Shown piece by piece: positions 1 to 62,317 of a DNA stretch of 64,000 nt. The stretch spans positions 1 to 64,000 of IMG/VR virus record IMGVR_UViG_3300045988_162176; one strand, 5' to 3'. Numbering within the stretch: position 1 is the first letter of the stretch; each line of letters begins with the position of its first letter. A program made the position numbers and the translations under genes. The notes under the pieces were generated by a model. The model was given only the letters and a program-made list of their open reading frames with translations. It searched no databases and was not told the origin of the DNA. The DNA comes from a virus.

Positions 1-55
1 AAAAGATATATTGAGAAAAGATATATTGAGAAAAGATATATTGAGAAAAGATATA
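1..55. repeat. Tandem 15-nt direct repeat AAAAGATATATTGAG (about 3.6 copies, cut by window edge)
   Basis: Read at 1-15, 16-30, 31-45, partial 46-55. Last unit forms inverted repeat AAAGATATA (47-55) / TATATCTTT (71-79). Confidence 0.85.
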
Positions 56-3178: not shown

Positions 3179-3222
3179 CCTCTCGACCCGAGCAAGTCGT
3201 TAAACTACTCAAACATAACAGA

Positions 3223-3248
3223 AGGAGAGATATCCCCCTATCTCTCCT
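3223..3248. terminator. Bidirectional stem-loop AGGAGAGATA/TATCTCTCCT (cassette 2)
   Basis: 10-bp stem, C-rich loop, T-rich flank on the minus strand. Confidence 0.6.
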
Positions 3249-3308
3249 CTGTAGTGAATAAGGACCTACATCCTTGTTTGCTTCTATCAATCTTCAGGAG
3301 GTAAAATA

Positions 3309-3383
3309 ATGAAGAAAATCATTAGCATTAATTATTTCTTTAATGTTGTTGTAAGCATTATTCTCAAGAACTACAACTTCTAA
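3309..3383 (+). CDS. mini-ORF 2, MKKIISINYFFNVVVSIILKNYNF (24 aa, no TAG)
   Basis: SD AGGAGG 7 nt upstream of ATG; close paralog of mini-ORF 1. Confidence 0.55.
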   Translation: MKKIISINYFFNVVVSIILKNYNF

Positions 3384-3446
3384 TAAGATGTAATTAAATA
3401 TCCTTAATAAGAGAGGTGTGTAGGCACTTCTCTTATTCTAACAACA

Positions 3447-3475
3447 AGTATAACATATAAAGTTGTGCTTGTCAA
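3447..3475 (-). promoter_or_regulatory. antisense promoter TTGACA-N17-TATACT with TGT (cassette 2)
   Basis: -35 at 3470-3475, -10 at 3447-3452 on the minus strand. Confidence 0.65.
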
Positions 3476-5380: not shown

Positions 5381-5408
5381 GAGGGATGGAAAATAACTTC
5401 CATCCCTC
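5381..5408. terminator. Stem-loop GAGGGATGGAA/TTCCATCCCTC (cassette 3)
   Basis: 11-bp stem directly after stop of 5177-5371. Confidence 0.55.
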
Positions 5409-5499
5409 AATAGAGTGTTTAAGCCCAACTTATTCACTCACACATTAATTTAGCCTACAATAAATTAATGTCTTATTAAATTAGAAAGGAGTTTTTGCT

Positions 5500-5571
5500 A
5501 TGTAGAAAATCTTAGCAGTTGACTATTATTGGTCCACAGTAGTAGTCTTCATCATTTACAATCGTAATTAA
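5500..5571 (+). CDS. mini-ORF 3, MQKILAVDYYWSTVVVFIIYNRN (23 aa, TAG at codon 2)
   Basis: SD AAAGGAG 8 nt upstream of ATG-TAG. Stop codon lies inside the 10-bp hairpin CGTAATTAAT/ATTAATTACG. Confidence 0.55.
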
Positions 5572-5622
5572 TCCATATTAATTACGTCACAAGTAGAGAG
5601 TGTAGGCTTTCTACTTGTGTTT

Positions 5623-5651
5623 ATCTTAGCACACTTGATAATATCTGTCAA
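5623..5651 (-). promoter_or_regulatory. antisense promoter TTGACA-N17-TAAGAT with TGC (cassette 3)
   Basis: -35 at 5646-5651, -10 at 5623-5628 on the minus strand. Confidence 0.6.
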
Positions 5652-5697: not shown

Positions 5698-6630
5698 ATG
5701 AAGAAGATTAACCTCACCAACATCAAGAACGAAAAGTCCGTTAGCGAAGTCCTGTTCGATGCACTTAAGCCCAAAGCAATCACCAATGAACAGTCTAAAA
5801 CTGTTTATGCTCTCAAACTCTCTGTTGAGAGAGAAATTGAGAAAAGAGAAGACGGTCGTAACTGGGCTATTAGAGACCTTCCTCTTTATCTTCCTGAAGT
5901 GGATTTACACTATCAGCGTGAACCCAAAAATTATGAAGTAGCCAAAATTACCAACAACTTTAATATCAATAAAGTTGAAGTTAAAGCAGCCTCTATTCGT
6001 AAAGTTGGTAACACTTGGCATCTGTTTCTTATGGATGGTGCTCATACTTTGAGCGTTCTGCTTTATATGCAAAGCAAGGGTTTCCCCATTTATGCTATCA
6101 CTTGTAAGGTTTTTATCAATCTTACTCTGGAAGAAGAAGCAGATTTGTTTGCTACTCAGAATGAGGGCAAGACTAACCTTCGTGGCTACGAAAGATATAA
6201 AGCTGAACTTTGTGCAAAGAAGCCCACAGCAGTGATTATCAATCAGGTTACAAAGGAATTTGGTCTGACTGTTAAGACCAATCGCAATAGCACCATCAAT
6301 CGTTATAACAACATCAATGCAGTTGAAGAGCTGTATCGTATTGTTAAGCGTGATGGTGAAAACGCTCTTCGTTTTGTGTTCGCTGTTCTTCAGGGAACTG
6401 GTTGGAAGGATGATATGGTTTATACTCAGCGTATGTTGGCAGGAATTTCTGCTTGTTATAAGCACTGTGAAGATACCAAAGCGTTCAACTATTTTCTGTT
6501 GAATCTTAAGCAGTATAAGAGCTGTGATGAGTTTGTTCGTGTTGCTCAGGACAAGATTGAAGAACACGAAGGTCATCCTGCTGAAAAGATTCGTGATTAT
6601 CTTCTTACTTACATGGTTTACAAGAAGTAA
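5698..6630 (+). CDS. ParB/Srx-fold N-terminal domain protein (310 aa)
   Basis: SD GAAAGGAA. YQRE...NFN..KV......V....W.L.DGAHTL pattern resembles the ParB-like nuclease N-domain (DGQHR-type); assigned by eye. Confidence 0.6.
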   Translation: MKKINLTNIKNEKSVSEVLFDALKPKAITNEQSKTVYALKLSVEREIEKREDGRNWAIRDLPLYLPEVDLHYQREPKNYEVAKITNNFNINKVEVKAASIRKVGNTWHLFLMDGAHTLSVLLYMQSKGFPIYAITCKVFINLTLEEEADLFATQNEGKTNLRGYERYKAELCAKKPTAVIINQVTKEFGLTVKTNRNSTINRYNNINAVEELYRIVKRDGENALRFVFAVLQGTGWKDDMVYTQRMLAGISACYKHCEDTKAFNYFLLNLKQYKSCDEFVRVAQDKIEEHEGHPAEKIRDYLLTYMVYKK

Positions 6631-6638
6631 AAGAAAAG

Positions 6639-6668
6639 AGACTGATAGCTGTCCAAACTACCAGTCTC
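6639..6668. terminator. Bidirectional stem-loop GAGACTG/CAGTCTC (cassette 4)
   Basis: 7-bp stem; TTTTCTTTT on the minus strand after the stem. Confidence 0.55.
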
Positions 6669-6732
6669 ATTTAAGACACCAGACTCCTGTAAAGTCTGTT
6701 TACATAATTACTCACAGAAAGGAGTATATCAC

Positions 6733-6804
6733 ATGAAAAAATATCTTTATGTCGATATGGTTGCATAGGTTTTTGCAATCAGAGTCCTCTACAACAGGAA
6801 TTAA
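6733..6804 (+). CDS. mini-ORF 4, MKKYLYVDMVAQVFAIRVLYNRN (23 aa, TAG at codon 12)
   Basis: SD AAAGGAG 8 nt upstream of ATG. C-terminal YNRN shared with mini-ORFs 3 and 5, with Arg coded by AGG here and CGT there. Confidence 0.55.
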
Positions 6805-6873
6805 TGAAATAATCGGGGACTAAAACCTACACTCGTCAAGTAAAAGTTACAGGCTACCTTGCTTGATGAGTGT

Positions 6874-6902
6874 AATATAACACAAACAACAACACTTGTC
6901 AA
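6874..6902 (-). promoter_or_regulatory. antisense promoter TTGACA-N17-TATATT with TGT (cassette 4)
   Basis: -35 at 6897-6902, -10 at 6874-6879 on the minus strand. Confidence 0.6.
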
Positions 6903-6959
6903 GTACTTTGTAAAAATTTCTTTTAAATACTTGACACCATTAAGAAAGGAAAGTATAAT

Positions 6960-7151
6960 ATGACCAATAATAAAATTAATTTCACCATTGAAACCCTCAA
7001 TGATAACGGTTCTGGTATGAAATATACTTCTAAGGAAGAATTCATGAAAGAACTGGGTTTAATGATTGATGATTGTATTGCCAATGGCGGTACATTCTTC
7101 GACATTCAGGTTGATTCTGATGCAAGTTGCTTCTGCACTGATGAGGACTAA
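6960..7151 (+). CDS. hypothetical protein (63 aa)
   Basis: SD GAAAGGAAAG upstream of ATG. Confidence 0.65.
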   Translation: MTNNKINFTIETLNDNGSGMKYTSKEEFMKELGLMIDDCIANGGTFFDIQVDSDASCFCTDED

Positions 7152-9113: not shown

Positions 9114-11447
9114 ATGAACACCACTTATATTGACAACATCCCCAGCGAAATCATTGAAAAGGATAAAGCTATTGTAAAGAAGTTTCTCTCAACTAAAGAA
9201 AGTATTAATCCCAATCCTAATAGTTGCCCTGATATCATTGTATATTGGCAACAAAAAGCAAATGGTAAAGCTTTCCATTTGCTGAGAGGTGAATATGAAA
9301 TTATTCAACATAACGATACTATTGGGCAGTATCGTAAAGGAGTAACTGGTCATTTCAATGTGAGTAATATTCAATCTCACACAATCGTTGTTGGCTCTGG
9401 TAAAGATGCAAAAGTGGCTTATGCCAAATATTATCCTGAATTTGAAATGCTTGTGTTTGGTATCATGGGAATTAACACAAAAAAGATTCCCGAAGAGAAA
9501 AGAAATTACCATTTTATAGAGCGTTATTTTCTTTTCAAAAATTGCCCTGCTCCATTTGATGTCAATGGAGACATTGCATTTAAATCTAAAGGAGGTAAAT
9601 TCTATAGTTTAGGATTTACTAATTTTCTTCAGCATGATTTGCATAAGACTGTTTCTCATTTCTATTTTTCTCAAGCAATTGAGGAATTTACTAGGAAGGG
9701 ATGCAATCCAAGAATCAAATGGACGCAATGGACTCCCTATACATTTGCTGATTACTATAAAGCAATGTATCCTCGTACTATTTCTAAATCTTCAGCAGAT
9801 ATCTCTGAAATTGTTAATAGCTTACCAACTATTAATTTGGACGAGCTCCGTCAGTTATATCCTAAAAAAGCCGTTGATGTTAAAAACTCTTGGAATGATG
9901 AGTATCACACTGAATACAAAGATACAATTTGGACATTTAACATCTTAAATGATAATTACTGTGTTATTCGTCAGTTTGGCGGTTATTTCGGGTTTGAAGA
10001 GCAATCACGTATTCTTATTGATAATAAAGGAAAAGTAACAATCTTTAAACCCATTTCAATTATTGATGGAGTTGTCGTATTTAGAGTATCTAGCTCTTCC
10101 GATGTTGGAGTTCCTGCTGATAATGTCTGTTTCTTCAAAGGTTTTGAGGATATGTTTAAGTTTAAGAGATTATTTTATATCTCTTCTATCATCAATGATA
10201 GCGACATTATGACTAAAACAAATTCCTTAATTCTCAGGATTATTTACACTCTTAGATGTCCTGCTATCGAACAATTTTATAAAGCTGGATATAAATATAT
10301 TGCCAATTATTTCATGAGTGCGTCTGCAAAATCTGATATTGAACATTTTTTTGGATACAAAAAGTATTCTAAATCTGCAAACATTTATGAGCTTAGTGGC
10401 ATGAACAAACATCAGCTTGAATTGGTAGATAAGATGTTTGAGGAAAAGAAAAAGAGTGCCAACAAATTTGTTAACCAAGGTCTTTCTTATACTCCTCGAT
10501 GTGTAATTGAAACCGTTCGATTTGTTGCTGGCGTTAAAAACCTTTCTTCTATTACTGACAAAGATTCCGACTTTTACTTTACCATGGCAAAAAGAATGAA
10601 TAATGTTCGTTCTGACTATCGTGAGTTTTTGCATTTTGTTGGAGTAAATAACAGCGTGTACACTTTTTATTTTAATAGAAGAAATTATTGGAAAGAAAGT
10701 TTGTATATAAACAAAGAAAAAGATATCCAGTCATCAACTCCCGAACAAAATGAAAAGGATAGAAAGAATCTCCTCAAGCTTATGCGTCTTCAGGAAAAAA
10801 CAGACAAGAAAGGTATTAACGAGGATGTGTTCAGAATCTTTTCCGATGCTCTCAACCTGTTTAAGCAAATCTCAAACACTAACAGACCAGATATTGACCT
10901 TTATGCCTGTAAAGATGTTAATGAACTTCATCGTTATCACAACATGTTGATTGAAATCAACATTGCAGACAAAGAAACGAGAGATAAAGAAGAACAGGAG
11001 AGATTGAATAAGTTAGCAGCTAAACTTTATGACCAACGCAAAGAAAAGTTTGAGTATGCTGATGATAACTTCTCTATCATTGTTCCTGAAGAAATGAACA
11101 AGATTACGAAGGAAGGTGTATATCTCCATCATTGTGTTGGTGGTTATATTAGTCGTGTTGCTGAAGGTAGAACAAATATTCTATTCTTAAGAAGAAATGA
11201 AGAAATTGAAATTCCTTTCTTCACGATTGAAGTTAACAACCACAATGAAATCATTCAGATTCACGGGCTTTATAATCGTTGGCTTGGAAATGAACCTGAT
11301 GCAGTTAAGTTTGTAATTAACTGGATTTATGAAAAGGGAATTAAATGTCCTGTAAACATTGTACTTAATAAAGGTCAAGGTTATAGCGCAAGTAGTAGTA
11401 AGCTTGATGCTAAAGAATATGGTTTGGAGGGTAAAAGTTATGTCTAA
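9114..11447 (+). CDS. PcfJ-like domain protein (777 aa)
   Basis: SD GAAAGGAAA. C-terminal GVYLHHCVGGYISRVAEGRTNILFLRR...FFTIEV...IIQIHGLYNR matches the PcfJ-type pattern and the C-terminus of 16657-18270. Confidence 0.7.
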   Translation: MNTTYIDNIPSEIIEKDKAIVKKFLSTKESINPNPNSCPDIIVYWQQKANGKAFHLLRGEYEIIQHNDTIGQYRKGVTGHFNVSNIQSHTIVVGSGKDAKVAYAKYYPEFEMLVFGIMGINTKKIPEEKRNYHFIERYFLFKNCPAPFDVNGDIAFKSKGGKFYSLGFTNFLQHDLHKTVSHFYFSQAIEEFTRKGCNPRIKWTQWTPYTFADYYKAMYPRTISKSSADISEIVNSLPTINLDELRQLYPKKAVDVKNSWNDEYHTEYKDTIWTFNILNDNYCVIRQFGGYFGFEEQSRILIDNKGKVTIFKPISIIDGVVVFRVSSSSDVGVPADNVCFFKGFEDMFKFKRLFYISSIINDSDIMTKTNSLILRIIYTLRCPAIEQFYKAGYKYIANYFMSASAKSDIEHFFGYKKYSKSANIYELSGMNKHQLELVDKMFEEKKKSANKFVNQGLSYTPRCVIETVRFVAGVKNLSSITDKDSDFYFTMAKRMNNVRSDYREFLHFVGVNNSVYTFYFNRRNYWKESLYINKEKDIQSSTPEQNEKDRKNLLKLMRLQEKTDKKGINEDVFRIFSDALNLFKQISNTNRPDIDLYACKDVNELHRYHNMLIEINIADKETRDKEEQERLNKLAAKLYDQRKEKFEYADDNFSIIVPEEMNKITKEGVYLHHCVGGYISRVAEGRTNILFLRRNEEIEIPFFTIEVNNHNEIIQIHGLYNRWLGNEPDAVKFVINWIYEKGIKCPVNIVLNKGQGYSASSSKLDAKEYGLEGKSYV

Positions 11448-11619
11448 ACGTACACCTAACAATGCTATCACAGAGTATCCCCAGTACGATGGTATGTACT
11501 ATGACCGCTGTGAAGGAATCCAGCGTAAGACTCATGGCAGTTATCGGTACAAAATTAACAAGCAGTACAAAGAAAAGCGGAAGCAATATTTGTACACAAT
11601 AGAAAAAGAGCAGGAATAA
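11440..11619 (+). CDS. hypothetical basic protein (59 aa)
   Basis: ATG 11440 after GGAGGG; overlaps the upstream stop by 8 nt. Confidence 0.55.
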   Translation: MSKRTPNNAITEYPQYDGMYYDRCEGIQRKTHGSYRYKINKQYKEKRKQYLYTIEKEQE

Positions 11620-11630
11620 AATCCTGCTCT
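11607..11630. terminator. Bidirectional terminator AGAGCAGGA/TCCTGCTCT (cassette 5)
   Basis: 9-bp stem spanning the stop codon; TTCTT after the stem on plus, TTTTT on minus. Confidence 0.65.
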
Positions 11631-11705
11631 TTCTTGATATAAGCATTTCCTATAAACTGTTTATATAATTTACCCCTTGTCTAAGGAGGAAAGGAGTTGA
11701 AAGCC

Positions 11706-11777
11706 ATGTAGAGAATCTTCTATGTTGATTATTTCTATGCTATTGTGTAGATAATGGTCATCTATAATCGTAATTAA
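11706..11777 (+). CDS. mini-ORF 5, MQRIFYVDYFYAIVQIMVIYNRN (23 aa, TAG at codons 2 and 15)
   Basis: Double SD AAGGAGGAAAGGAG upstream of ATG-TAG; stop inside hairpin GTAATTAAT/ATTAATTAC. Confidence 0.55.
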
Positions 11778-11849
11778 TCTAGGACATTAATTACAAAACT
11801 ACACAGATGGTAGTTAAGAAGTATAGGATTCTTTCTATCATCTGTGTAT

Positions 11850-11878
11850 ATATTAACACACAACATCAATCTTGTCAA
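11850..11878 (-). promoter_or_regulatory. antisense promoter TTGACA-N17-TAATAT with TGT (cassette 5)
   Basis: -35 at 11873-11878, -10 at 11850-11855 on the minus strand. Confidence 0.6.
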
Positions 11879-11919
11879 GTAGTTTCTAATATTTAATTTA
11901 CTTTATTTGGTTTAAATAC

Positions 11920-11948
11920 TTGACAAACACGGATTTGAGATTTATAAT
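11920..11948 (+). promoter_or_regulatory. plus-strand promoter TTGACA-N17-TATAAT, divergent from the cassette 5 promoter
   Basis: -35 at 11920-11925, -10 at 11943-11948. About 80-nt leader to ATG 12029. The only clear sigma70-type plus-strand promoter seen in the plus block. Confidence 0.6.
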
Positions 11949-12028: not shown

Positions 12029-13039
12029 ATGGGTCTCGCCTCTTATAATACCGATAAGGTCAACGCTGTTATGGAAGCTGTTGAAAATACTCCTCGTAAG
12101 AAGTACTATGAGGATATGGGTATCACTCTTGAGAATGTTCACTCTCTTGAGTCTGCCCTTAAGCTCAGTGGTCTGGATTATTCTGTCGAAAAGCGTCCTG
12201 TCCAGTTCGTAAACAAAGTTGAGCAGGAATGGAATGGTCAGAAGATTCTGGTTGATACTCCGTTTATCATCCCTGACCAGTTTGCAACCATTCGTACTGA
12301 TACCAATGCTCCTCTGGGTATTGTCGGTAAGAACTACAATATTCTCCAGAATCGTGAAGCTTTCGACTTCCTTGACTCTCTTGCTTTGGGAGGTGCTAAG
12401 TTTGAAACTGCTGGTAGTTATGGACCTAATGGAGCTAAGAGCTTCATTACCATGTCTACTGAGCCTATGAAGATTCTGGATGATGAATTCTTGCCTACCA
12501 TGATGTTCCTTAATAGTCATGATGGTTCCAAGGCAATTCAGGCAATGTTCATCAGTATCCGTATCTTCTGTTCCAACTGCATTGCTCGTGCAACTAGAGG
12601 TGCTGAGAATCGTGTGAGTATTCGTCACAGTAATTCTATGCAGGCCAAGTTGGAACAGGCTAAGACCATTCTGCTTCAGAATACCAATTATCTTGAGCGT
12701 CTTAAAGTGGAAGCTGAGAAGCTTGCGGTTACTCCTTATTCCAAGGAAGCCTTCGAAGCTCTTGCTCGTGAGCTTTTCCCTGTCAAGACTGAGGATTCTG
12801 AGATTATTCAGATTCGTAATCTGGCTATGATTGAAAAGCTCATGACGGCTTACAATCAGGATGATTTGGCTAATTTCTCTGGAACTGCATGGCGAGCACT
12901 TCAGGCCATTTCTGACTTTGAATCTCATCCCACTCAGATGCGTAAGTCTTCCAAGTCTACCACTACGGGAGCGTTCACGGCTGTCGCAGTTAATACTATG
13001 CCTATTCTGAACTCTGTTTGGAATCGTATTGCCGCTTAA
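12029..13039 (+). CDS. DUF932-type phage/plasmid-like protein (336 aa)
   Basis: Start at ATG 12029 after GAAAGGAA. TIRTDTNAPLGIVGKNYNILQN and LNSHDGSKA motifs are typical of the DUF932/TIGR03299 family (by eye). Confidence 0.7.
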   Translation: MGLASYNTDKVNAVMEAVENTPRKKYYEDMGITLENVHSLESALKLSGLDYSVEKRPVQFVNKVEQEWNGQKILVDTPFIIPDQFATIRTDTNAPLGIVGKNYNILQNREAFDFLDSLALGGAKFETAGSYGPNGAKSFITMSTEPMKILDDEFLPTMMFLNSHDGSKAIQAMFISIRIFCSNCIARATRGAENRVSIRHSNSMQAKLEQAKTILLQNTNYLERLKVEAEKLAVTPYSKEAFEALARELFPVKTEDSEIIQIRNLAMIEKLMTAYNQDDLANFSGTAWRALQAISDFESHPTQMRKSSKSTTTGAFTAVAVNTMPILNSVWNRIAA

Positions 13040-16585: not shown

Positions 16586-16656
16586 CCCCTCCTCCCTTTA
16601 ATATATAATCACTACAAACCATACCAAACATTTGAATTAAGAAAGGAAAATTGATT

Positions 16657-18270
16657 ATGTCTAACACTGCTATTGCTAACTTCTACAAGTCTACTACACA
16701 TGATTATGCAAGTTTTTTTAAGAACTACGAAGCTTCTGCTAAAGAGAAAGAAATCAACACTCGTATCAAGCATCTCACTGACCAACTCGAAGAAGCAAGA
16801 GTCGAAATGACTAAAGTTCAGAACAACCGTTACAATAGCGATTTTACTCCTCTTGGAAAGAAAATCATTGTTCACTATAGCTCAAATCGCTCTGATGTTG
16901 AGTTGTATTTTGATTTATTCACTGGCGCTTCTACCAGTCGTGATTATCTTGCACCTAATACTTTTATCATCAAAGAAATTAATTTGAAAGGTGGTGATTT
17001 CTGGGTCAATGTTGGTTATTGCTTCCCTCTTGGGGCTATTGTATCTCGTCATTATAGATATAGAATTGCCACTAACAACTCTTCTTGCAATTTTATTATG
17101 GATGGTGAGCAATTAATTCCTATCCTTGAGCCTACCGCAAAACCTGTCAGTGATGGTGATGCTCCTGTCTATGAATCTGGAATGGGTGATAGTGCTATCT
17201 ATTTCATCTCTCAGGCTTGGGATATTCCTATTGAGAATATTGGACCTAAATACACTTTCAGAGAATTGAGATTTGCATTAAGTAGAAATAAATCTACTGA
17301 AATCATCTTCCGCACTGCTCCTAAATCCATTCAAAATGACCTTCTTAATCTTAAAATTGAAACTGCTGAACCTGTTTACAAACTTGTTCATCTTACTAAA
17401 GCAGAATATAAAGAAGCTAATGACAGAGGCATTCTTGATGATTGGATGAATTTGATGTCTATTGTTGGTTCCGCTTTTAGAGATGATAATAAAACTTATT
17501 ATGGTTTTAATGACAACATGACTCTGGAAGATTTTTGTCACTATACCAATCAGGAATGGTTTGACATCATCGAAAAAGCTAAGTATTGGGATGAGGAATT
17601 TGAATTTAATCACGTCCAAACTGGTGGATATGGTGGAAAAGTTTTCTTTAATACTTTGTCTGCTTATCTCAGGAATAATAATTCTTATAGAAATTCCAAA
17701 TTCTATCAGTTCTATACCTTTGGTAAGTTCATGGATTATGTTTGTGAGGAAACAGTCAATCAGGGCTTTAAAACTTTAAACTCGTTTATGGGTGAACTTC
17801 GTGACTATCTTGATATGTGTGTTTCCATGAATATCAAGCCTACTCTTTATAGTTCTTACCTTAAACAGACTCATGATATCACCTCTCGTAACTATGAAGT
17901 TAAGCTTACCGAGGAACAGGCTGAGATGTTTGAAAATGCTTATAAAGATTTCAAGCCTTTTATCACTGAGGATAAAATATATAGTATTATTCGTCCTAAG
18001 AATGCAGATGATGTCAAGCACGAAGGTTCTGAACTTAATCATTGTGTTGCCAGTTATATTTCTAGAATTTTCAAGAGAAATTGTCTAATTGTTTTCCTTC
18101 GTAAGACAAAAGCTACTGACAAACCCTTGGTTACTATTGAAATTGAAAACAATGCAATTGTTCAGGCAAGGGGGGCTTCCAACCGTAGTATCACTGAGGA
18201 CGAATATAAAGCTATTTGCGAGTATGCCAACAAAAACAAATTCAAAGTTCGTGTTACTCCTCGTGACTAA
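16657..18270 (+). CDS. PcfJ-like domain protein (537 aa)
   Basis: ATG 16657 after GAAAGGAAA. C-terminal GSELNHCVASYISRIFKRNCLIVFLRK...LVTIEIENNAIVQARGASNR parallels 9114-11447. Confidence 0.7.
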   Translation: MSNTAIANFYKSTTHDYASFFKNYEASAKEKEINTRIKHLTDQLEEARVEMTKVQNNRYNSDFTPLGKKIIVHYSSNRSDVELYFDLFTGASTSRDYLAPNTFIIKEINLKGGDFWVNVGYCFPLGAIVSRHYRYRIATNNSSCNFIMDGEQLIPILEPTAKPVSDGDAPVYESGMGDSAIYFISQAWDIPIENIGPKYTFRELRFALSRNKSTEIIFRTAPKSIQNDLLNLKIETAEPVYKLVHLTKAEYKEANDRGILDDWMNLMSIVGSAFRDDNKTYYGFNDNMTLEDFCHYTNQEWFDIIEKAKYWDEEFEFNHVQTGGYGGKVFFNTLSAYLRNNNSYRNSKFYQFYTFGKFMDYVCEETVNQGFKTLNSFMGELRDYLDMCVSMNIKPTLYSSYLKQTHDITSRNYEVKLTEEQAEMFENAYKDFKPFITEDKIYSIIRPKNADDVKHEGSELNHCVASYISRIFKRNCLIVFLRKTKATDKPLVTIEIENNAIVQARGASNRSITEDEYKAICEYANKNKFKVRVTPRD

Positions 18271-19548: not shown

Positions 19549-20379
19549 ATGAAACATTTTTATGAAAAGGATATTTTTATCAGTAAGGATGTTGCTGCTA
19601 AAATTAACAAAGCTTGTTCAACAAGTTATCCTGAAGATTGGTTCTCGGAAGATGAAACACCTTTTACACTTACCGCTAAATTTGCGGATGGAACGACAAT
19701 GGATATTCGTTGTTGTGGTTCACAAGAGGCTCCCTCTTGGTGTGAATCTATTCTTTGGGCTCCTGATGAAAACGGCGGTTTGCATGAAATAAATTGCTCT
19801 GGAGAAGTTTGTGATTCCATCCTCGGTAACTGGGAACTGGTTGACCATGATACTGAGAATAAATATATTGTCAATGTCAAAATTGAGGAGGAAAATGAAA
19901 TGCCTACTAACAAGAAGTTTAACGAAATGATTATCCATTCTGAGAAAAACAATTGTTCCCCTTACGTCTCTGTCGATACTCCTAATGGTCAGTTTAGAAT
20001 TTACTGTGAACCTGAAGATGGATATCATGGAGCGTTTATCACGTTTATTCGTGATGGTCAAGCAGTTGAGCAAGATATCTGTATGGCAGAGATTGACCCT
20101 GATGATAAGTCTGGTAATACCTTCTCTGTCAAGGTTTGGAGTGAACCTCAGTCTGAAGAGTATCAGGAAAATATTCATTTTGGTCAGTATCGCGAGCCTT
20201 GTTGTCCTTATTGTGGAAATAAAAGTGTGGATGAGGTAGATGATTTTGGAAACAAAATCAAGTTCCTTTGCCAAGAATGTGGTCAAGATTTCTTAATGAG
20301 TATTTACACAGGCGAATATTTTACTCTTAATCGTATTCCTCTTAAACCTTTTGAGGAAAAAGAAAAGGAACAGGAGTAA
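19549..20379 (+). CDS. hypothetical protein with C-terminal zinc-ribbon (276 aa)
   Basis: SD GAAAGGAAA; CCPYCGN...CQECG near the C-terminus. Confidence 0.7.
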   Translation: MKHFYEKDIFISKDVAAKINKACSTSYPEDWFSEDETPFTLTAKFADGTTMDIRCCGSQEAPSWCESILWAPDENGGLHEINCSGEVCDSILGNWELVDHDTENKYIVNVKIEEENEMPTNKKFNEMIIHSEKNNCSPYVSVDTPNGQFRIYCEPEDGYHGAFITFIRDGQAVEQDICMAEIDPDDKSGNTFSVKVWSEPQSEEYQENIHFGQYREPCCPYCGNKSVDEVDDFGNKIKFLCQECGQDFLMSIYTGEYFTLNRIPLKPFEEKEKEQE

Positions 20380-20388
20380 CCCTGTTCC
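20367..20388. terminator. Bidirectional terminator GGAACAGG/CCTGTTCC (cassette 6)
   Basis: 8-bp stem spanning the stop codon; TTTTCTTTTT after the stem on the minus strand. Confidence 0.6.
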
Positions 20389-20465
20389 TATCTAAAACTC
20401 CAGCCCCGTAAGCTGTTCATATAAATGAAACCCTTGTCTTAAGGAAGAAAAGGAGATGAAAGACC

Positions 20466-20546
20466 ATGTAGAAAATCAAATAGATAAACTACAAATTTAA
20501 CATTTATTACTTCGTGATAGTGTTAACAGGTTTCCTTGAGCTATAA
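20466..20546 (+). CDS. mini-ORF 6, MQKIKQINYKFNIYYFVIVLTGFLEL (26 aa, TAG at codons 2 and 6)
   Basis: SD AAAGGAG upstream of ATG-TAG; stop inside hairpin GTTTCCTT/AAGGAAAC; most diverged family member. Confidence 0.5.
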
Positions 20547-20606
20547 GGAAACTAAAACCTAATACACATAGGGTTGAGAGGTTACGGGTCTCTTAACTCT
20601 ATGTGT

Positions 20607-20635
20607 ATTGTAACATATCAACACAACTTTGTCAA
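20607..20635 (-). promoter_or_regulatory. antisense promoter TTGACA-N17-TACAAT with TGT (cassette 6)
   Basis: -35 at 20630-20635, -10 at 20607-20612 on the minus strand. Confidence 0.6.
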
Positions 20636-22217: not shown

Positions 22218-22778
22218 ATGTCTCAATATACCAACATTGAAGCTGTTAAAAATTATATCGAACTGGCAAGAATGAATTTGATTCATCTTGGATTCACTGA
22301 ATTGTCCGATATAAAAATCGTGACAGAATGGAACACAAGAGCTAAGAACCGACTTGGGCAGTGCTGTCCTAAACGTGCTTTTGACGGCAAGCGCTATTTC
22401 GTTCTCAGCTTCAACAAGAAATATTTTGAGATTGGAGATGATAACAATGTACGAGGCACAATTATCCATGAAGTAGCTCACTGTGTTACTAATGGGTTAA
22501 GCCATGAGCATTCAAGCGGATGGTACAAAGCTATTACCAAATATAACGCTGTTTATGGCACGCATATTCAGAGATGTAGTTATGACCCTGTTTACCATGA
22601 ATATCTTAACAAACAGTCTAAATCAAGCAACAATTACAAAATCTATTGTGATTGCTGTAAGAAGGTGGTGAAAACTTATCAGCGTAATTGCAACACAGTT
22701 CAGGGTATCAGGTCTAATCCTTCTGGTTGGAGATGTGGTGGCTGTGGTAAAACAGGAACTCTTAAGCTTTTGAGTTAA
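22218..22778 (+). CDS. SprT-like zinc metallopeptidase domain protein (186 aa)
   Basis: Start at ATG 22218 after GAAAGGA; HEVAH (HExxH) motif plus C-terminal CDCC...CGGCG zinc ribbon. Confidence 0.65.
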   Translation: MSQYTNIEAVKNYIELARMNLIHLGFTELSDIKIVTEWNTRAKNRLGQCCPKRAFDGKRYFVLSFNKKYFEIGDDNNVRGTIIHEVAHCVTNGLSHEHSSGWYKAITKYNAVYGTHIQRCSYDPVYHEYLNKQSKSSNNYKIYCDCCKKVVKTYQRNCNTVQGIRSNPSGWRCGGCGKTGTLKLLS

Positions 22779-25615: not shown

Positions 25616-26317
25616 ATGGCTAAGTCTGTTAACAACAAAAAGGAATTCACCATGTCTCGTGAGGAATACATTCAGCATCTCTCTATGAGAACGAATGAGA
25701 TTCACATGACTACTAAGAACTCCAAGACTGGTATGGGAGTCATTGATTTGGCAGTTCCGACTTGTTGTTGTCGTGAAGATGCGCCTTGTAAGAAGGGTGG
25801 TTGTTATTGTATGAAAGGTACTCAGACCTTAACCATCGTTCAAGCTTCGTATCTTCGCAATCTTCGCATTTATAATAGCGACCATGAAGATTTCTGGAAT
25901 CAGGTTGACTTTAAGCTCAAACATTCTGGTCTTAGTATGTGTCGTTTCTTTGATTGTGGCGACATTCCTGATTACGATTTCTTCGACGGAATGGTTAACA
26001 TTGCTTTGAAGAATCCCAAGATTAAGTTTATGGCATTTACGAAGAAGTATTTTATCGTGAATGAATGGCTTTCTGAAAATGAAAAGCTTCCTAAAAACTT
26101 AAACGTTATCTTCTCTGCATGGGATAAGGATTGGGTTGTTCCTAATCCGTATAATCTTCCTGTGGCTTATGTTGATTTCAAGGATAAGTCCAAGAACCCT
26201 GAGTTCCCTAAGAATTATTCTACTTGTCCTAATCAGCATGATAAAACTGTTACTTGCACAGTTTGCCAGAAATGTTGGAATAAAAAGGTGAAAACCGTTG
26301 TGTTTAAGCAGCATTGA
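25616..26317 (+). CDS. hypothetical Cys-rich protein (233 aa)
   Basis: Leader TTTGAAAGGAAG; CCCREDAPCKKGGCYC and TCTVCQKCW clusters. Family not recognised with confidence. Confidence 0.7.
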   Translation: MAKSVNNKKEFTMSREEYIQHLSMRTNEIHMTTKNSKTGMGVIDLAVPTCCCREDAPCKKGGCYCMKGTQTLTIVQASYLRNLRIYNSDHEDFWNQVDFKLKHSGLSMCRFFDCGDIPDYDFFDGMVNIALKNPKIKFMAFTKKYFIVNEWLSENEKLPKNLNVIFSAWDKDWVVPNPYNLPVAYVDFKDKSKNPEFPKNYSTCPNQHDKTVTCTVCQKCWNKKVKTVVFKQH

Positions 26318-29877: not shown

Positions 29878-30834
29878 TTAACCTTCTCTGGTATAATTGA
29901 TTACAGGTTCATTCTTTAAAGCAAAGAATTTATGACCACCAATATAATTAGTAGTACTTCCATCTTCATTTACATAAGTAATAGGCTTTAAAGTCTTAGC
30001 ATTTTCATGCCATGTACCTTTACTATGTGCAGGAGCATAGAAGAATAATACAAAATCATCTGTAGGCATACTATAATTATCGAATATCTCTTTTACTGCT
30101 TGTCTACATTCATCAGCAGCATTTGTGTTGCCATAGGCTTTAAGACATTCTTTTTCAAATTCATCAATGTCCTTATATCCATCATAGGAGTATTGCTTTC
30201 TTACTTGTGAGGGGGACATATTATCTCGTAACATACCATTATAAACAGCCTGAGCCACGAGTTTTTTGCCCACAAAGGGCTGATTACCACTCTCACCAGC
30301 TACAATACTTTCTACTACATGACGTTCAGAATCAGTGAGATGAATTAAATATGCGTAGCGATAAGTTGAGGTTTTAGATTCTGTCTGCTCAGGTTCAGAA
30401 CTTTGGTTTTCAGAAGTTTGACCCTCGGAATACTGTACGCTCATGTCTGAAAAAATATAAACAGACTCATCATTATTGTTTTCAACCATCTTACTCATAT
30501 CCACATAAAAAATTCTATTAGGACTAATATTTCCAATATTATTTATGTCCCAATAATTTTCTTTTTGTGTTTGAAAGTTTTTAATGGCGATATAATGAGG
30601 AGAAGTTGTTTCAACTAAAGAAGAATTATCCTCTCCTGTTTTATTTAAGGCTTGAGCATACCCTACTACACTTACCACTAAACTGAATGTGAGACAAGTT
30701 GCAATCGCTTTATGAATACTTGTCTTAATTAGGGGGTGTGAATTTGTGAGCTGTGTCTCATGTGTGGGTGTATTTGTATTTGTGTTACTATGGTTAGGCT
30801 TGCTATATTTAATTGTATATTTCTTGTTTTTCAT
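29878..30834 (-). CDS. SleB-type cell wall hydrolase domain protein with N-terminal membrane anchor (318 aa)
   Basis: SD AAGGAAGGAAA; hydrophobic anchor ATCLTFSLVVSVVGYA. ERHVVESIVAGESGNQPFVGKKLVAQAVYNGM resembles the Hydrolase_2/SleB signature (by eye). Confidence 0.6.
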   Translation of the reverse strand: MKNKKYTIKYSKPNHSNTNTNTPTHETQLTNSHPLIKTSIHKAIATCLTFSLVVSVVGYAQALNKTGEDNSSLVETTSPHYIAIKNFQTQKENYWDINNIGNISPNRIFYVDMSKMVENNNDESVYIFSDMSVQYSEGQTSENQSSEPEQTESKTSTYRYAYLIHLTDSERHVVESIVAGESGNQPFVGKKLVAQAVYNGMLRDNMSPSQVRKQYSYDGYKDIDEFEKECLKAYGNTNAADECRQAVKEIFDNYSMPTDDFVLFFYAPAHSKGTWHENAKTLKPITYVNEDGSTTNYIGGHKFFALKNEPVINYTREG

Positions 30835-37944: not shown

Positions 37945-39708
37945 TTATAATTTTTTTGCGTGGGTTGAAGTAGCAAAACTATTATTATATATTTCCTTTT
38001 TCCATGATGGCCATAACTCAGCAGTTTTTCGAACTGCATTATAAACAGAGGAATAATTTTTAACCTTTTCAGATGATGGTAGGGTGCTTTTCAATTCGTT
38101 CTATCTTTCTTCAAGTCTTCTCCTACGTTCTTCTTCTTGGATTTCATTAAGATTATACAAAATAACATCATCAATAGCCTCGATAACTTCATTCAGCTTA
38201 TGAACAATATCGGTAGTAAGTTTAGTATTTACTTCATAGCTATAAGCAGAATCAGTAAGATAAAGCTTACTAAGATAATTAGGAAGTGAATCAGCACTAG
38301 TAACTTTTCTGCTGGATGGAGGTGATGCATTATCTGTTGTAGATGTGTTAGAATCTTTTTCATTTTTACAATCATTTACATATTTATCATTTACATATTT
38401 ATCAAGATAAGGAAACTGCTTAAAATTATCTTCACTTAACTTATAAACAGAATCAATACGAGCCATTTCCTTGACGCAATTAAGGTCAGACATGAGATAG
38501 TTGCCGATGCGCTTATAATAGTTCTCATAGGGATAAATCAAACTAAGTTCCTTGTCAACTTCAAGGTAATTATATGTTTTATCTTTATAAGAGACAATAA
38601 TAGGTGTCCAACAATAATAGCAATACTTATCATTATATCCAATGCGAGAAATATAGCCAACAGAATTATTGTTATTATAGACAACATCACCGAGCTTAAA
38701 GACAGGTTTGGGCTTTTCTATATCAACACTACCAACCTTATGCGTTCCAGTATCCGTATCATTGTTATCAATGGTAACAACAGACTGATTATTATTTACT
38801 TTAACAGTTTTAGTCTCAGGTTCTTCTTTAACTTCTTTTGTGTAATCCTTGTACTTTTCTTTCATCCAGCTCTTAAATTCATCGAAAGTTTTTTTAGAAA
38901 AATCGGAAGCTGAATAAAAAGTGTCCACCACTCGTGTACAAATTTCATCCAAATCCTCATCAGAAAAGCCAGCAAATTTCTTAACGGATTCTTTACACTT
39001 ATTTTTAGCAGTATTTGTATGGGTTTCAAGGAAGCCATCAATTTTTTTGATAGCTTCATCGAGTTCTTCCTGTGAATAAAATGCGGATTTTAACTGGGTA
39101 TCGACACCCGTTTTTCCCTTATTTTTAGGGAAGTAATTTTTTTCGTTTTCAGTCATTTTTTTGTCCTCTTTCGGGAGACATTTTTCAGTCTCTTTCTCAA
39201 TTTTGTCCTTTAAATCATCAAAAGTTCGTAGGGTAGAAAACTGCCCAACCTTTTCTTCATATTTCTTATCTTCTTCTTGAGTTAAAAGGAATAACTTTTG
39301 AATATCTTCCTTTTCCTCTTTTGTGGGAAAAGTTGTAGGAGACTTCATCGTGTCAAAAATGCTCCAAAGCACATTATAATTTTGAACAAAAGTAATAATA
39401 TTCCAATCTTTAATAGCAGGAATTGTGATTGCATTGCTATCAACATAAAGATAGTACTTAGAAGCAAGGTCATAACGAGTTAACTTTTCATAAGTATTAT
39501 AATAATGACCGCCAGCCCAATCTTCGTTGCAATCTTCACTATGAATACAACGAATATTAATTGTTATTCTACGACCATCAAAAACGACATAGGAAGAAAC
39601 TTCCCAAATATTATAAAACTTGTCGATTAAAATATCTCCCTCTTCAATATTTTCCCAAACATATTGAGCAAAAGCTACGGGATTAGTGGGGAAATCATTC
39701 TTTTTCAT
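37945..39708 (-). CDS. hypothetical protein (587 aa if TAG 38101-38103 is read through; 535 aa otherwise)
   Basis: SD AAAGGAG; a stop-free 51-codon extension after the TAG ends at a TAA followed by a terminator. Confidence 0.65.
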
Positions 39709-52880: not shown

Positions 52881-53226
52881 TGCTTTTTTCCTCGCTTAAA
52901 TCGCTTAAATATTCATCTAATACACTATCAACATTACCACTTACAAAGATGATAGGAGGGTCTTCTTTGGAATAGGGATAAGAAGTAGAATTAAGATATT
53001 CATAGTCTTTAGGCATTACACAAGCCCAATGATTTAGTTTGGGTACATAAACAAGATTAGAAAAACCCCAGTTATAAAACAAATCAAGTTCTCTCGCAGT
53101 AAAATTTAATCTGTAAGCTTCATGTTTATAATATTCAGATTTCTTTTTATCGTTTGTTTTATTAGAAGCTTTAAGATAATCTTTTAAAATTTCTTCAATT
53201 TTAAGACAAGTATCAAAAATTTTCAT
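52861..53226 (-). CDS. hypothetical protein (121 aa)
   Basis: Start at ATG 53226 (TAATG overlap) after GGAGGAA. Confidence 0.65.
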   Translation of the reverse strand: MKIFDTCLKIEEILKDYLKASNKTNDKKKSEYYKHEAYRLNFTARELDLFYNWGFSNLVYVPKLNHWACVMPKDYEYLNSTSYPYSKEDPPIIFVSGNVDSVLDEYLSDLSEEKSNEQKEI

Positions 53227-54257
53227 TATTCCTCCACATAACAGATATAGCAATTATATCCTTTTTCAGCTAAATCAGCCTTAACCTTTTCAGCACCAGA
53301 CTTTTTAGCAAAGAATCCTACTTGAACCTTGTAAAGTTTGGTTTTATGGTCTAGTATACAGAAAGCAGTTGAATAATCAATAATACCAGTTAAGGTGCGA
53401 ATCTCATTACGGTAGGTAATCGCACGAGCAGAATTACTAAAAGCTCCCAACTGACAGCGATAGCCAGTCTTTTTAGGACGGTTTTCCTCTTTCTTATCAA
53501 TTTTATTCTGTTTCTTTTCTTCTATCTCTGCTTTTTCTCTTTCGGCATTAGAACGAAGCCAGAAAGCGAGAATAGAATCAACAGGTCTCAACCAACCAGA
53601 AGCAGAAAGTCGTGTTCCTTCAAAGTTTGTGTAAGTAGAATTTCCACCATCCTGATTGCAACAATAATCTACATCAGGAAAAAGAGATTTAATAAAGTTC
53701 TGAGCAGTAGAAAGCTTCATACCACCAGACACAACAGAAACAATAAAGTACTTTTCATTCTTGGGATTGCCATCTGTCTTTGTCCAACCGAACATCTGTC
53801 TCTTAGCTTCGTAATCAATATCAGCATAGTTCTTTACAGATTGAGGTTGCTTATTTTTAAACAGGGCAGGATATTCTGTGCCAAAATCTCTCCAACCAAC
53901 GCCATTGTTAAATACGCCATTCATAATCTTTCCAGAATTTGTAATACCCCAACCATTAGAGAAATTACTATCTTTGGCATAAACAGTATTGTTGCTTTTC
54001 AAATTCCAGATAGAAGTTCCACTTGCAGTATCAAAGAAGAAAGCGTTCGTTACAATATCAGGCTTGTAGCCATAAAGATTATACATCTTTTCAGGGCTTA
54101 ACTTGGGTTGAGTACACATATCAATACTTGCACTCTTTAATTCGCTTTTAGGCCAATCAATTACAACTACATTGTTATAAGTAACCCCTCTTACAATAGG
54201 GTGATACCAACGAAGCAGAGAATTGTTTTTACCATAATGATACTAAATATTTGCCAT
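53226..54257 (-). CDS. putative cell-wall hydrolase: DUF2233/phosphodiester-glycosidase-like domain plus C-terminal SPOR domain (343 aa, TAG at codon 5)
   Basis: ATG 54257 after TGGAG, and in frame with the 297-aa track ORF if TAG 54243-54245 is sense. NQDGGNST motif; C-terminal YRCQLGAFSN...YKVQVGFFAKKSGAEKV is SPOR-like. Confidence 0.6.
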
Positions 54258-61019: not shown

Positions 61020-61200
61020 AGAAATTGAAATCCTTACGGATAATTCTTACTGCTTCATAATATATGCTTTCACGATTATAAATAATCCGCTATTCGCAGG
61101 TCCTTGTATATTCCACAGTCGTAAATTCCCGAAATAGCCTTCGGTACATACTTATGATTGCTTAATTATACAATTTCATAAGTTAAAGCATCTCTCAAAT
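61020..61200 (-). ncRNA. candidate TnpB guide RNA (omega/reRNA) scaffold
   Basis: Overlaps the tnpB 3' end and the 150-nt ORF-free tail. Minus-sense hairpins CCGAA..TTCGG, GATTAT..ATAATC and ATCC-GTAA-GGAT. Confidence 0.4.
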
Positions 61201-62317
61201 TAAGACTTGCATTGAAATCTCTATCTGCAATATAACCACATGAACAGTAGTATACTCTGTCTGAAAGTTTTAAGTCTTTATTAATATTACCACAACAATG
61301 ACATAATTTAGAAGAGGGATAAAATCTATCTACAATTCTTAATTCAATATCATTTTCGGCACATTTAACTTTTAATTTTGTTCTAAATTCATAAAACTTT
61401 TGTGCGGCAATAGCTTTTGAAAGATACTTATTCTTCATCATACCTGATATATCTAAATTTTCAATAGTTATATAAGATGGCTTGGTTTTTACTATCTCAG
61501 CTATTATTTTATTGATATAATCAGTTCGAATATTAGTTATTTTATGATAAAGTTTTTGTACTTTAAGTTTTTGTTTTTGTATATTTTTTTGAGTGCTGCC
61601 TCCTTTCTTAAAATTTTCATATTTACGAGAAAGACATCGTTGTTCTCTTCGTAATTGTTTTTCTATTTTTTTTATTTCCCTTGATTTGTTGATATTTTTA
61701 TATATTTTACCATTTGAAATAACGGCAAAATCTTTCAAACCCAAATCAATTCCTATACCTTCATTAAAATTGTGCGCAATTTGAATATTTGGCATCTCTA
61801 CTAAAACAGATACAAAATATTTATTTGCTTTAATAGATACTGTGCCGCTCTTAATTTTCAAACCGCTTTTAGATACTGGTATATAACCTTTTTCTTTTAA
61901 ACGAACCCATCCCAAACTTGGAATTTTAATTCTATGTCTTTCACAAAGACAATCGGTTAAATTATTTTTAACAAAATACATTTTTACATCAGATTTTCCT
62001 TTTTTCTTAAATTTAGGATAACCTGATTGATGTTTAAAAAATTTTGTAAAAGCAGCATATCCATCTTCAATAGATTTTTTTACTGCTTTTGAATATACTT
62101 CTTTAATCCATATTTTGTCAGGATTGTTTGGAATATATTCATTATTAAGCCATAAACTAAAACTTTTTCCTGTTACAAATTTTTTATTTCGGTCATATAA
62201 TTCTTTATTATAAGACAAATAAAAATTGTAAATATATCTACAAGTCCCAATTGTTTTATTAATTTGAATCTTTTGTTCTTTTGTTGGATTTATTTCCGTT
62301 TTAAAACTTTTTAACAT
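61166..62317 (-). CDS. tnpB: TnpB RNA-guided nuclease (IS605 OrfB family, 383 aa)
   Basis: GIDLGLKDF, ITIENL and ADRDFNASLNL RuvC-like D/E/D motifs with a CHCCG...CSCG zinc finger. No in-frame TAG. Confidence 0.85.
   Translation of the reverse strand: MLKSFKTEINPTKEQKIQINKTIGTCRYIYNFYLSYNKELYDRNKKFVTGKSFSLWLNNEYIPNNPDKIWIKEVYSKAVKKSIEDGYAAFTKFFKHQSGYPKFKKKGKSDVKMYFVKNNLTDCLCERHRIKIPSLGWVRLKEKGYIPVSKSGLKIKSGTVSIKANKYFVSVLVEMPNIQIAHNFNEGIGIDLGLKDFAVISNGKIYKNINKSREIKKIEKQLRREQRCLSRKYENFKKGGSTQKNIQKQKLKVQKLYHKITNIRTDYINKIIAEIVKTKPSYITIENLDISGMMKNKYLSKAIAAQKFYEFRTKLKVKCAENDIELRIVDRFYPSSKLCHCCGNINKDLKLSDRVYYCSCGYIADRDFNASLNLRDALTYEIV

Follow-up and report, generated by a model that had tools for sequence, protein, structure and literature searches.

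The 64-kb window analysed here (64,000 nucleotides of viral DNA, positions 1 to 64,000 of IMG/VR record IMGVR_UViG_3300045988_162176) belongs to a large, jumbo-class gut phage of ~214 kb and contains a block of plus-strand genes in which six strong sigma70-type promoters point against the direction of the genes. The reading that we favour, with somewhat better than even confidence, is that these six promoters make the cis-antisense RNAs of paralogous cassettes akin to type I toxin-antitoxin (TA) modules, in which amber (TAG) codons would restrict the product of a very short open reading frame (ORF) to late infection. Transcription, repression, toxicity or membrane activity of the peptide, and timing are predictions drawn from the sequence. 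The comparisons below use a clade of 108-220-kb contigs found in IMG/VR and ENA, which share 95-100% protein identity and come from human gut metagenomes, including Hadza samples. They include a near-identical relative, the 214,176-bp contig ERZ27296301:k119_55060 (L181); other contigs are likewise given by their L numbers.

The window was scanned for TTGACA-N14-TGnTAnnnT, with dinucleotide-preserving shuffles of its 64 kb as the null. The scan yielded 15 matches, all on the minus strand, versus 0.13 ± 0.34 in the shuffles; with the TG optional there were 23 matches, 21 being minus-strand sites, where 1.5 were expected. The six sites that the initial annotation had located inside the plus block were found where it had placed them, on the minus strand at 2742-2714, 3475-3447, 5651-5623, 6902-6874, 11878-11850 and 20635-20607 (cassettes c1 to c6, in this order), each with TTGACA, an exact 17-nucleotide (nt) spacer and a TG-extended -10 hexamer. 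Its count of 16 comparable promoters in the minus block was also about right (15 exact TTGACA-17-TAnnnT and a few variants carrying TTGACT or TTGAAA). In an alignment of 40 unique cassette copies from related contigs, conservation is 100% in the -35 hexamer, 97-100% in the TG and 100% at positions 1, 2 and 6 of the -10 hexamer, but 38-75% at spacer positions. Invariant contact positions combined with a drifting spacer are the pattern expected of a promoter under selection. The elements found (TTGACA, a 17-nt spacer of free sequence, TGn and TAnnnT) are those of sigma70/sigmaA promoters of the extended -10 type, and the six antisense promoters are almost certainly functional. That host sigma70/sigmaA polymerase produces discrete antisense RNAs at six points, as had been proposed, is very plausible given the invariant contacts in the 40 copies and the terminators present in four of the six cassettes.

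None of the six promoters is scattered inside a gene. Each stands at the end of a ~300-nt intergenic cassette, and an alignment of all six shows that the cassettes are homologous to one another. Searching the window with a profile of the six recovers these copies and no others; they share one orientation (sense) and lie within the plus block, and no copy is present in the minus block or in the 10 kb upstream of the window. Read 5' to 3' on the plus strand, the cassette is composed of hairpin A, a -10-like box with a poor -35, an AGGAG ribosome binding site (RBS) and an ATG that are both invariant, the ORF, a hairpin containing the stop codon (in some cassette families), hairpin B and the minus-strand promoter. 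Four of the six hairpins A score as intrinsic terminators of the minus strand, where their T-runs are found (3249-3222, 6668-6638, 11634-11603 and 20389-20366); together with the strong promoters they delimit complete short transcription units of ~230-245 nt on that strand. The antisense RNA is predicted to be about 230-250 nt long, to start from a promoter much stronger than the sense one, and to be complementary to the sense -10 region and overlap the ORF and its RBS fully.

Cassette c5 displays all of these parts. Its hairpin A (11603-11634, minus strand) is the intrinsic terminator AGAAAGAGCAGGATTTTATTCCTGCTCTTTTT, which overlaps the stop of gene 11440-11619 and at which an antisense RNA of ~245 nt is predicted to end. 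The RBS AGGAG (11692-11696) precedes the plus-strand ORF 11706-11777, which codes MxRIFYVDYFYAIVxIMVIYNRN followed by its stop codon (here and below x identifies an in-frame TAG, in this case at 11709 and 11748). Fold prediction places the stop-codon hairpin at 11770-11794 and hairpin B at 11800-11848, the latter being the predicted 5' stem-loop of the antisense RNA on the minus strand and folding in the sense RNA too. The antisense promoter at 11850-11878 (minus strand) has its -35 TTGACA at 11878-11873, TG at 11858-11857 and -10 TAATAT at 11855-11850. No convincing ORF was found on the antisense strand of this cassette. Both RNAs, sense and antisense, are unusually structured (z = -4.4 and -4.1). 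In the fold of the peptide mRNA a hairpin encloses the AUG-UAG, and part of the Shine-Dalgarno region is base-paired to a CCUU stretch.

The other five cassettes follow the same plan, their ORFs lying on the plus strand and ending in a stop codon. Cassette c1 (2456-2742) has hairpin A at 2456-2496, RBS at 2578-2582, ORF 2591-2665 (MxKITFINYALNVVGMIILKNHNF, TAG at 2594) and hairpin B at 2682-2707. Cassette c2 (3222-3475) has the minus-strand terminator 3249-3222, RBS 3296-3300, ORF 3309-3383 coding MKKIISINYFFNVVVSIILKNYNF, which is devoid of TAG, and hairpin B 3407-3436. In c3 (5381-5651) hairpin A (5381-5408) is followed by a weak sense promoter on the plus strand (5433-5461, TTCACT-17-TACAAT), RBS 5487-5491, ORF 5500-5571 (MxKILAVDYYWSTVVVFIIYNRN, TAG at 5503) and hairpin B 5588-5619. 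The c4 cassette (6638-6902) comprises the minus-strand terminator 6668-6638, RBS 6720-6724, ORF 6733-6804 (MKKYLYVDMVAxVFAIRVLYNRN, TAG at 6766) and hairpin B 6829-6873, while c6 (20366-20635) comprises the minus-strand terminator 20389-20366, RBS 20451-20455, ORF 20466-20546 (MxKIKxINYKFNIYYFVIVLTGFLEL, TAG at 20469 and 20481) and hairpin B 20564-20606. Note that in some relatives a c6-type cassette is directly upstream of a c5-type cassette with no gene between them (L004:5380-5890, L005:5181-5697, L009:5204-5708). The c6-type copies of these tandems have no antisense promoter of their own, and one antisense RNA started at the c5-type copy could span the two ORFs.

The small ORF has the features of a gene that is maintained. 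All 40 cassette copies carry it with a length of 23-26 codons, one of them frameshifted (L018:1127), so that 39 of the 40 preserve its length and frame as well as the RBS and ATG, at a mean column identity of only 48%. TAG occurs in frame 46 times in the 40 ORFs, and TAA and TGA never occur internally, although the remaining two frames would predict roughly 70 of them; those frames contain 104 TAA, 41 TGA and 39 TAG. Variable sites are distributed over codon positions 1, 2 and 3 as 13/6/20 and 5/2/11, a skew that is a coding signature. The c5 orthologues retain both TAGs and the frame, and diverged copies in L027, L052 and L054 keep every part of the cassette, ATG-TAG included. In the six copies of the window the best 15-residue Kyte-Doolittle window of the peptide scores 1.6-2.05 and its net charge is +1 to +3. 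The cassette thereby shows, at sequence level, what is generic to type I TA modules: a hydrophobic ORF of <60 amino acids (aa) with its own RBS, faced by a predicted antisense gene with a conserved promoter and, in four of six cases, a minus-strand terminator.

These data bear directly on whether the cassettes are mobile or duplicating repeats with an outward promoter and no target, or whether their ORFs are decaying pseudogenes. Copy number and arrangement do vary among close relatives, which have tandems and copies lacking the antisense promoter, and the frameshifted copy is what decay would produce. Yet neither terminal inverted repeats nor a transposase were seen, 39 of the 40 ORFs are intact in spite of their divergence, the interruptions are all TAG without a single TAA or TGA, and the promoter contact positions are invariant. 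This explanation is consequently regarded as very improbable.

The TAG codons themselves are conserved. They occur in five of the six cassette ORFs of the window, c2 having none in any relative, and are found at codon 2 in most families, at codon 15 in the c5 family, at codon 12 in c4-type families and at codons 6 or 10 in the c6 family. Codon 12 is CAA in six, CAG in one and TAG in one of the close orthologues, TAG swaps with Q at position 15 in distant cassette copies, and at codon 2 TAG alternates with AAG/AAA (Lys). The ordinary genes of the plus block use 198 CAA/CAG and no TAG; the six cassette ORFs use no CAA/CAG and seven TAG.

The phage reads TAG as a sense codon elsewhere in its genome, to judge from several genes. 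The plus-strand HNH-like endonuclease gene (2-1333) has seven in-frame TAG and no TAA/TGA. All seven, which are spread across a conserved domain, are kept in an orthologue, a 43%-identical paralogue with TAGs of its own at other places aligns across them, and tblastn matches annotated HNH endonucleases across the TAG positions; Pfam gave no match for this ORF. One out of three TAG positions aligns with Q in homologues and the others with N. The same pattern of in-frame TAG without TAA/TGA is found to the left of the window (L181:1-3182 region) in an NT5C-like gene (two TAG) and in the gene of an RdRP/YonO-type RNA polymerase (three TAG). At most four of 119 predicted genes end in TAG, one case being solid. 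The TAG residue is probably glutamine, as in code-15 phages, where TAG codes for Gln and recoding preferentially affects small transmembrane proteins associated with lysis (Borges et al., preprint 10.1101/2021.08.26.457843). Counts of read-through ORFs for TAG, TGA and TAA were also tried as a recoding test and were uninformative because TAA read-through fuses many genes. Standard-code ORF finding splits the HNH-like ORF (731-1108 and others), and the gene caller of the source collection reads through the TAGs. The sole solid TAG-ending gene is that of a 535-aa protein at 37945-39708 (minus strand), whose frame stays open for 53 further codons to TAA-TAA; its TAG could allow a suppression-dependent carboxyl-terminal extension.

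Hairpin B shows covariation. All nine pairs tested have double changes and the covariation score is 0.438, compared with 0.279 ± 0.023 in shuffled alignments, none of 500 shuffles reaching the score and slid controls giving 0.13-0.23. Its core was recovered independently by RNAalifold. The stem starts 1-4 nt past the -10 hexamer (core at +4 to +11), so that a start at +6 to +8 falls at or just within its 5' arm; the proposal that transcription begins on the first base of hairpin B is approximately right in placing a stem-loop at the 5' end, with the start shifted to the edge or slightly into the arm. On the sense strand hairpin B has no T-run and is not a terminator, and hairpins A are terminators of the minus rather than of the plus strand.

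These structures also suit a different role for the ORF, namely that of an amber-sensing regulatory leader (an upstream ORF) which, jointly with the antisense RNA, would make expression of the operon behind it conditional on the code switch: ribosomes would halt at TAG under the standard code and suppressor read-through would remodel the stop-codon hairpin and hairpin B. Cassettes are always found directly upstream of an operon, four of which have no other promoter, the ORF stop codon is sequestered by a hairpin in the families with YNRN-type ends, TAG is at codon 2 in most copies, and sense transcription is not terminated by hairpin B. The constraint at the amino-acid level and the hydrophobic pattern conserved across peptide families speak for a functional peptide instead. 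Furthermore, c2 lacks TAG in every relative, independent perfect promoters follow c4 and c5, where no gate is needed, some relatives have tandem cassettes with no intervening gene, and no terminator/antiterminator alternative was found. A leader of this kind is therefore judged unlikely.

Sense transcription of the plus block is probably served in part by host-type promoters. The initial annotation recognized one plus-strand promoter of comparable quality, 11920-11948, which is perfect, divergent from the c5 antisense promoter 11878-11850 and predicted to drive the DUF932 operon from 12029 onward. It is not the only one: 6931-6959 (plus strand), divergent from the c4 antisense promoter 6902-6874, is likewise a perfect 12/12 TTGACA-17-TATAAT. 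Both are perfect in all related contigs examined (L001-L010 and other relatives), and the near-identical contig has a third sense-oriented site, TTGACA-N14-TGcTATAAT, immediately left of the window start (L181:7820-7848). The divergent pairs have the hexamers alone in common and form no inverted repeat. The -10 of 6931-6959 abuts the ATG of the plus-strand gene 6960-7151, whose RBS is inside the promoter spacer. Transcripts from this promoter would consequently begin 3' of that ATG, and gene 6960-7151 is either served by upstream transcripts or has a mis-assigned start. A 15-nt tandem repeat (ATTGAGAAAAGATAT) occupies the interval between the consensus sense promoter left of the window and the HNH-like gene (window 2-55, L181:7853-7883), with about four copies in the window and two in the near-identical contig.

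The idea that the plus block lacks host-type sense promoters and depends on other means accordingly fails for the sites at 6931 and 11920, perfect and conserved, and for the third one upstream of the window; its other half, the presence of a phage RNA polymerase, holds. An RdRP/YonO-type single-chain RNA polymerase gene is located 8-10 kb left of the window (PF05183, E = 8e-15, L181:1-2206), while a PDB sequence search with a fragment of the protein gave no match. YonO transcribes the late operon of SPbeta, and the promoter of this polymerase class is not known (PMC5467207). A motif search for a sense signal of non-sigma70 type returned a single recurrent motif, the octamer ATAGAGTG, seen five times on the plus strand (166, 2498, 3657, 5410 and 8002, three of them intergenic and just after hairpins) versus 2.1 expected on both strands, which makes for a weak candidate.

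The alternative built on this polymerase, which is the model of the initial annotation, holds that the plus block is transcribed by non-sigma70 means (phage polymerase or read-through) and that the antisense promoters interfere with the long sense transcripts or lead to their processing by RNase III. The polymerase gene near the window and the YonO precedent (PMC5467207) lend it some substance. So does the distance from the antisense -35 to the ATG of the next gene, just 24-46 nt in c1, c2, c3 and c6, which leaves no room for a sense promoter in four of the six cassettes, so that sense transcripts of those operons must cross the antisense unit. The orientation of hairpins A and the absence of a T-run from hairpin B likewise favour sense read-through. 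Against it stand the three consensus sense sigma70 promoters (6931-6959, 11920-11948 and the one left of the window), the shortness of antisense units ended by their own terminators within the cassette, their overlap with the conserved small ORF rather than with the genes of the block, and tandem cassettes without a gene between them (e.g., L004 5380-5890). Moreover, the polymerase gene has in-frame TAGs and its product is not expected early unless carried in the virion. We give this alternative little credence. As to the effect that the antisense RNAs had been expected to have on plus-block genes, the target is rather the 23-26-codon ORF of the cassette itself; interference or RNase III processing may nevertheless occur since sense transcripts cross the antisense unit in four of six cassettes.

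Taking the cassettes as TA-like modules, their operation could be as follows. Early in infection, host polymerase would use the cassette promoters along with the promoters of the same type in the minus block; the antisense RNAs would be early because both sets are of the same class. The resulting RNAs of about 230-250 nt, with a protective 5' stem-loop and full complementarity to the peptide mRNA, would silence it through duplex formation and RNase III cleavage, occlusion of the RBS and convergent-transcription interference. The conserved in-frame TAG codons of five of the six ORFs would act as a second lock. Since the phage decodes TAG as sense (probably Gln) in other genes, the peptide would be completed only once amber suppression has been switched on, and thus be made late only, when a membrane-active peptide could aid host killing or the timing of lysis. 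By analogy with characterized modules and from its composition, the peptide may be an effector of membrane damage, lysis timing or host killing. The more specific proposal that the cassette is a dual-lock timer for a killing or lysis peptide, held by early antisense RNA and amber codons and released when early transcription ends and the code switches, is offered tentatively, the odds being somewhat against it.

Several observations weigh against the interpretation as TA-like modules. Promoters, terminators and RNA-RNA regulation are all computational predictions. Hairpins A of c1 and c3 are without a proper T-run, leaving the 3' ends of these two antisense RNAs uncertain. The hydrophobic stretch of the peptide is short for a membrane helix, and the c4 version of relatives (MxKILHVDMDRQISVIRIVYHRN) is polar, its best window scoring 0.57. 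In Pfam and NCBIfam the peptides match no known toxin family, the Fst and Hok models of Pfam included, and Rfam searches at the gathering threshold and at E<=1 gave no match for the cassettes, which are thus outside the known type I families as represented in the three databases (Fst, Hok, Ldr, Ibs, TisB, BsrG, TxpA and the Rfam antitoxin RNAs). The AUG-UAG hairpin may account in part for the conservation of TAG at codon 2. Neither the window nor about 90 kb of related loci yielded a suppressor tRNA that could decode TAG; a scan of viral contigs with a generic suppressor-tRNA pattern returned none of this clade's contigs among the matches listed. Finally, hairpin B does not end sense transcripts, and in four cassettes the following gene lacks space for a promoter of its own. 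The main function of the cassette could hence be to serve the operon behind it as a gate or leader, and not that of a toxin module.

The phage has no close relative among deposited phages by megablast and tblastn. A Firmicute host is indicated by the sigmaA-type promoters and by strong Shine-Dalgarno sites before nearly all genes. Searched as a DNA pattern, the cassette occurs in this phage clade only. In a scan of bacterial genomes the pattern had one true match, a 28-kb contig binned as Bacteroidaceae (L054), and three others that are due to chance. The strong Shine-Dalgarno sites and sigmaA-type promoters indicate that L054 is probably a mis-binned phage contig.

The plus-strand genes between 5698 and 26317 code for a DUF6551 ParB-like protein (5698-6630), two PcfJ-domain proteins (9114-11447 and 16651-18270), a DUF932 protein (12029-13039), a SprT-like protein (22218-22778) and GP88 (25616-26317), a set that resembles plasmid leading-region or anti-restriction islands. 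Single-strand promoter hairpins of the Frpo type, found in conjugative leading regions, were considered in view of the DUF932, PcfJ, ParB-like and SprT-like genes and rejected because the promoter pairs are not inverted repeats and the element is a ~214-kb phage. The 35-kb minus block (28600-64000, minus strand) codes almost entirely for ORFans (PHROGs and Pfam searches of about 30 proteins), the exceptions being a SPOR-domain protein (53226-54119) and a weak endolysin-like match (29878-30834). About 15 consensus promoters punctuate it, as expected of an early region for host takeover; with nearly all of its proteins ORFans, its early status is deduced from the promoters only. The minus block also carries an IS605-family TnpB gene (61166-62317, minus strand) with a RAGATH-18 RNA directly downstream (61047-61119) and its own minus-strand promoter (62495-62467, TTGACA-17-TGnTAATAT). 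This element is present in L179 and absent from the same place in L178 and L180, which indicates a recent insertion in this phage lineage.

Functionally, the nearest known systems are multi-copy type I TA repeats such as Ibs/Sib, the TA modules of Bacillus subtilis prophages and the recoded lysis proteins of code-15 phages. Ibs/Sib and Ldr/Rdl of Escherichia coli are alike in having several diverged paralogous intergenic cassettes with a very short hydrophobic ORF, of 18-19 aa in Ibs, that is completely overlapped together with its RBS by a small RNA transcribed from a strong promoter on the opposite strand. These are multi-copy chromosomal repeats of the general type I TA class (class described in PMC2887945). 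The cassettes described here differ by their location in a Firmicute-type phage and not in a proteobacterial chromosome, the lack of sequence similarity, the conserved in-frame TAG and their position at operon boundaries, where they may also feed downstream genes. Fst/RNAII of the par locus of Enterococcus plasmid pAD1 and hok/sok of plasmid R1 share with them a membrane peptide silenced by antisense RNA and a highly structured toxin mRNA with sequestered Shine-Dalgarno site and AUG. They have no homology to the cassettes, their overlap geometry is another, and they serve plasmid maintenance, in contrast to the role in the lytic cycle proposed here. The TA modules of Bacillus subtilis prophages (bsrG/SR4 and yonT/SR6 in SPbeta, txpA/RatA in skin) are also phage-borne in a low-GC Gram-positive bacterium, with a convergent antisense RNA made from a strong sigmaA promoter; their toxins are longer (38-59 aa) and unrelated in sequence, the overlap is at the 3' end only, the standard code is used and they are single copies. 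SPbeta has the YonO-type RNA polymerase in common with the phage studied here (PMC5467207).

The recoding aspect finds its counterpart in the code-15 phages (Borges et al., preprint 10.1101/2021.08.26.457843), in which TAG is a sense codon (Gln), the host keeps to the standard code, early genes can be read under that code, and recoding of small membrane-type proteins was proposed to prevent their premature expression. The ~200-kb genome size and the origin from Hadza gut samples resemble the 'Sapphire' clade of that study, which is a lead only. That work describes neither an antisense RNA layer nor 23-26-codon ORFs nor repeated cassettes, and differs also in that the recoded ORFs reported here are found inside an otherwise TAG-free, early-looking block. 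Full-text literature searches brought up no account of recoded phages in which small ORFs carrying conserved amber codons are under antisense control.

If the dual-lock timer proposal is true, this would be the first TA-like module whose toxin is gated by a change of the genetic code. Recoding has been proposed to delay lytic functions in gut phages, and tractable regulatory units are scarce. The cassettes are self-contained, repeated and ~300 nt long, and would keep a peptide of 23-26 residues under two independent locks, one of antisense RNA and one of amber codons. They also have a bearing on annotation: standard gene callers miss the cassette ORFs because these look broken by stop codons, and strong promoters apparently pointing the wrong way in a phage operon can flag unannotated modules of small ORF and antisense RNA.

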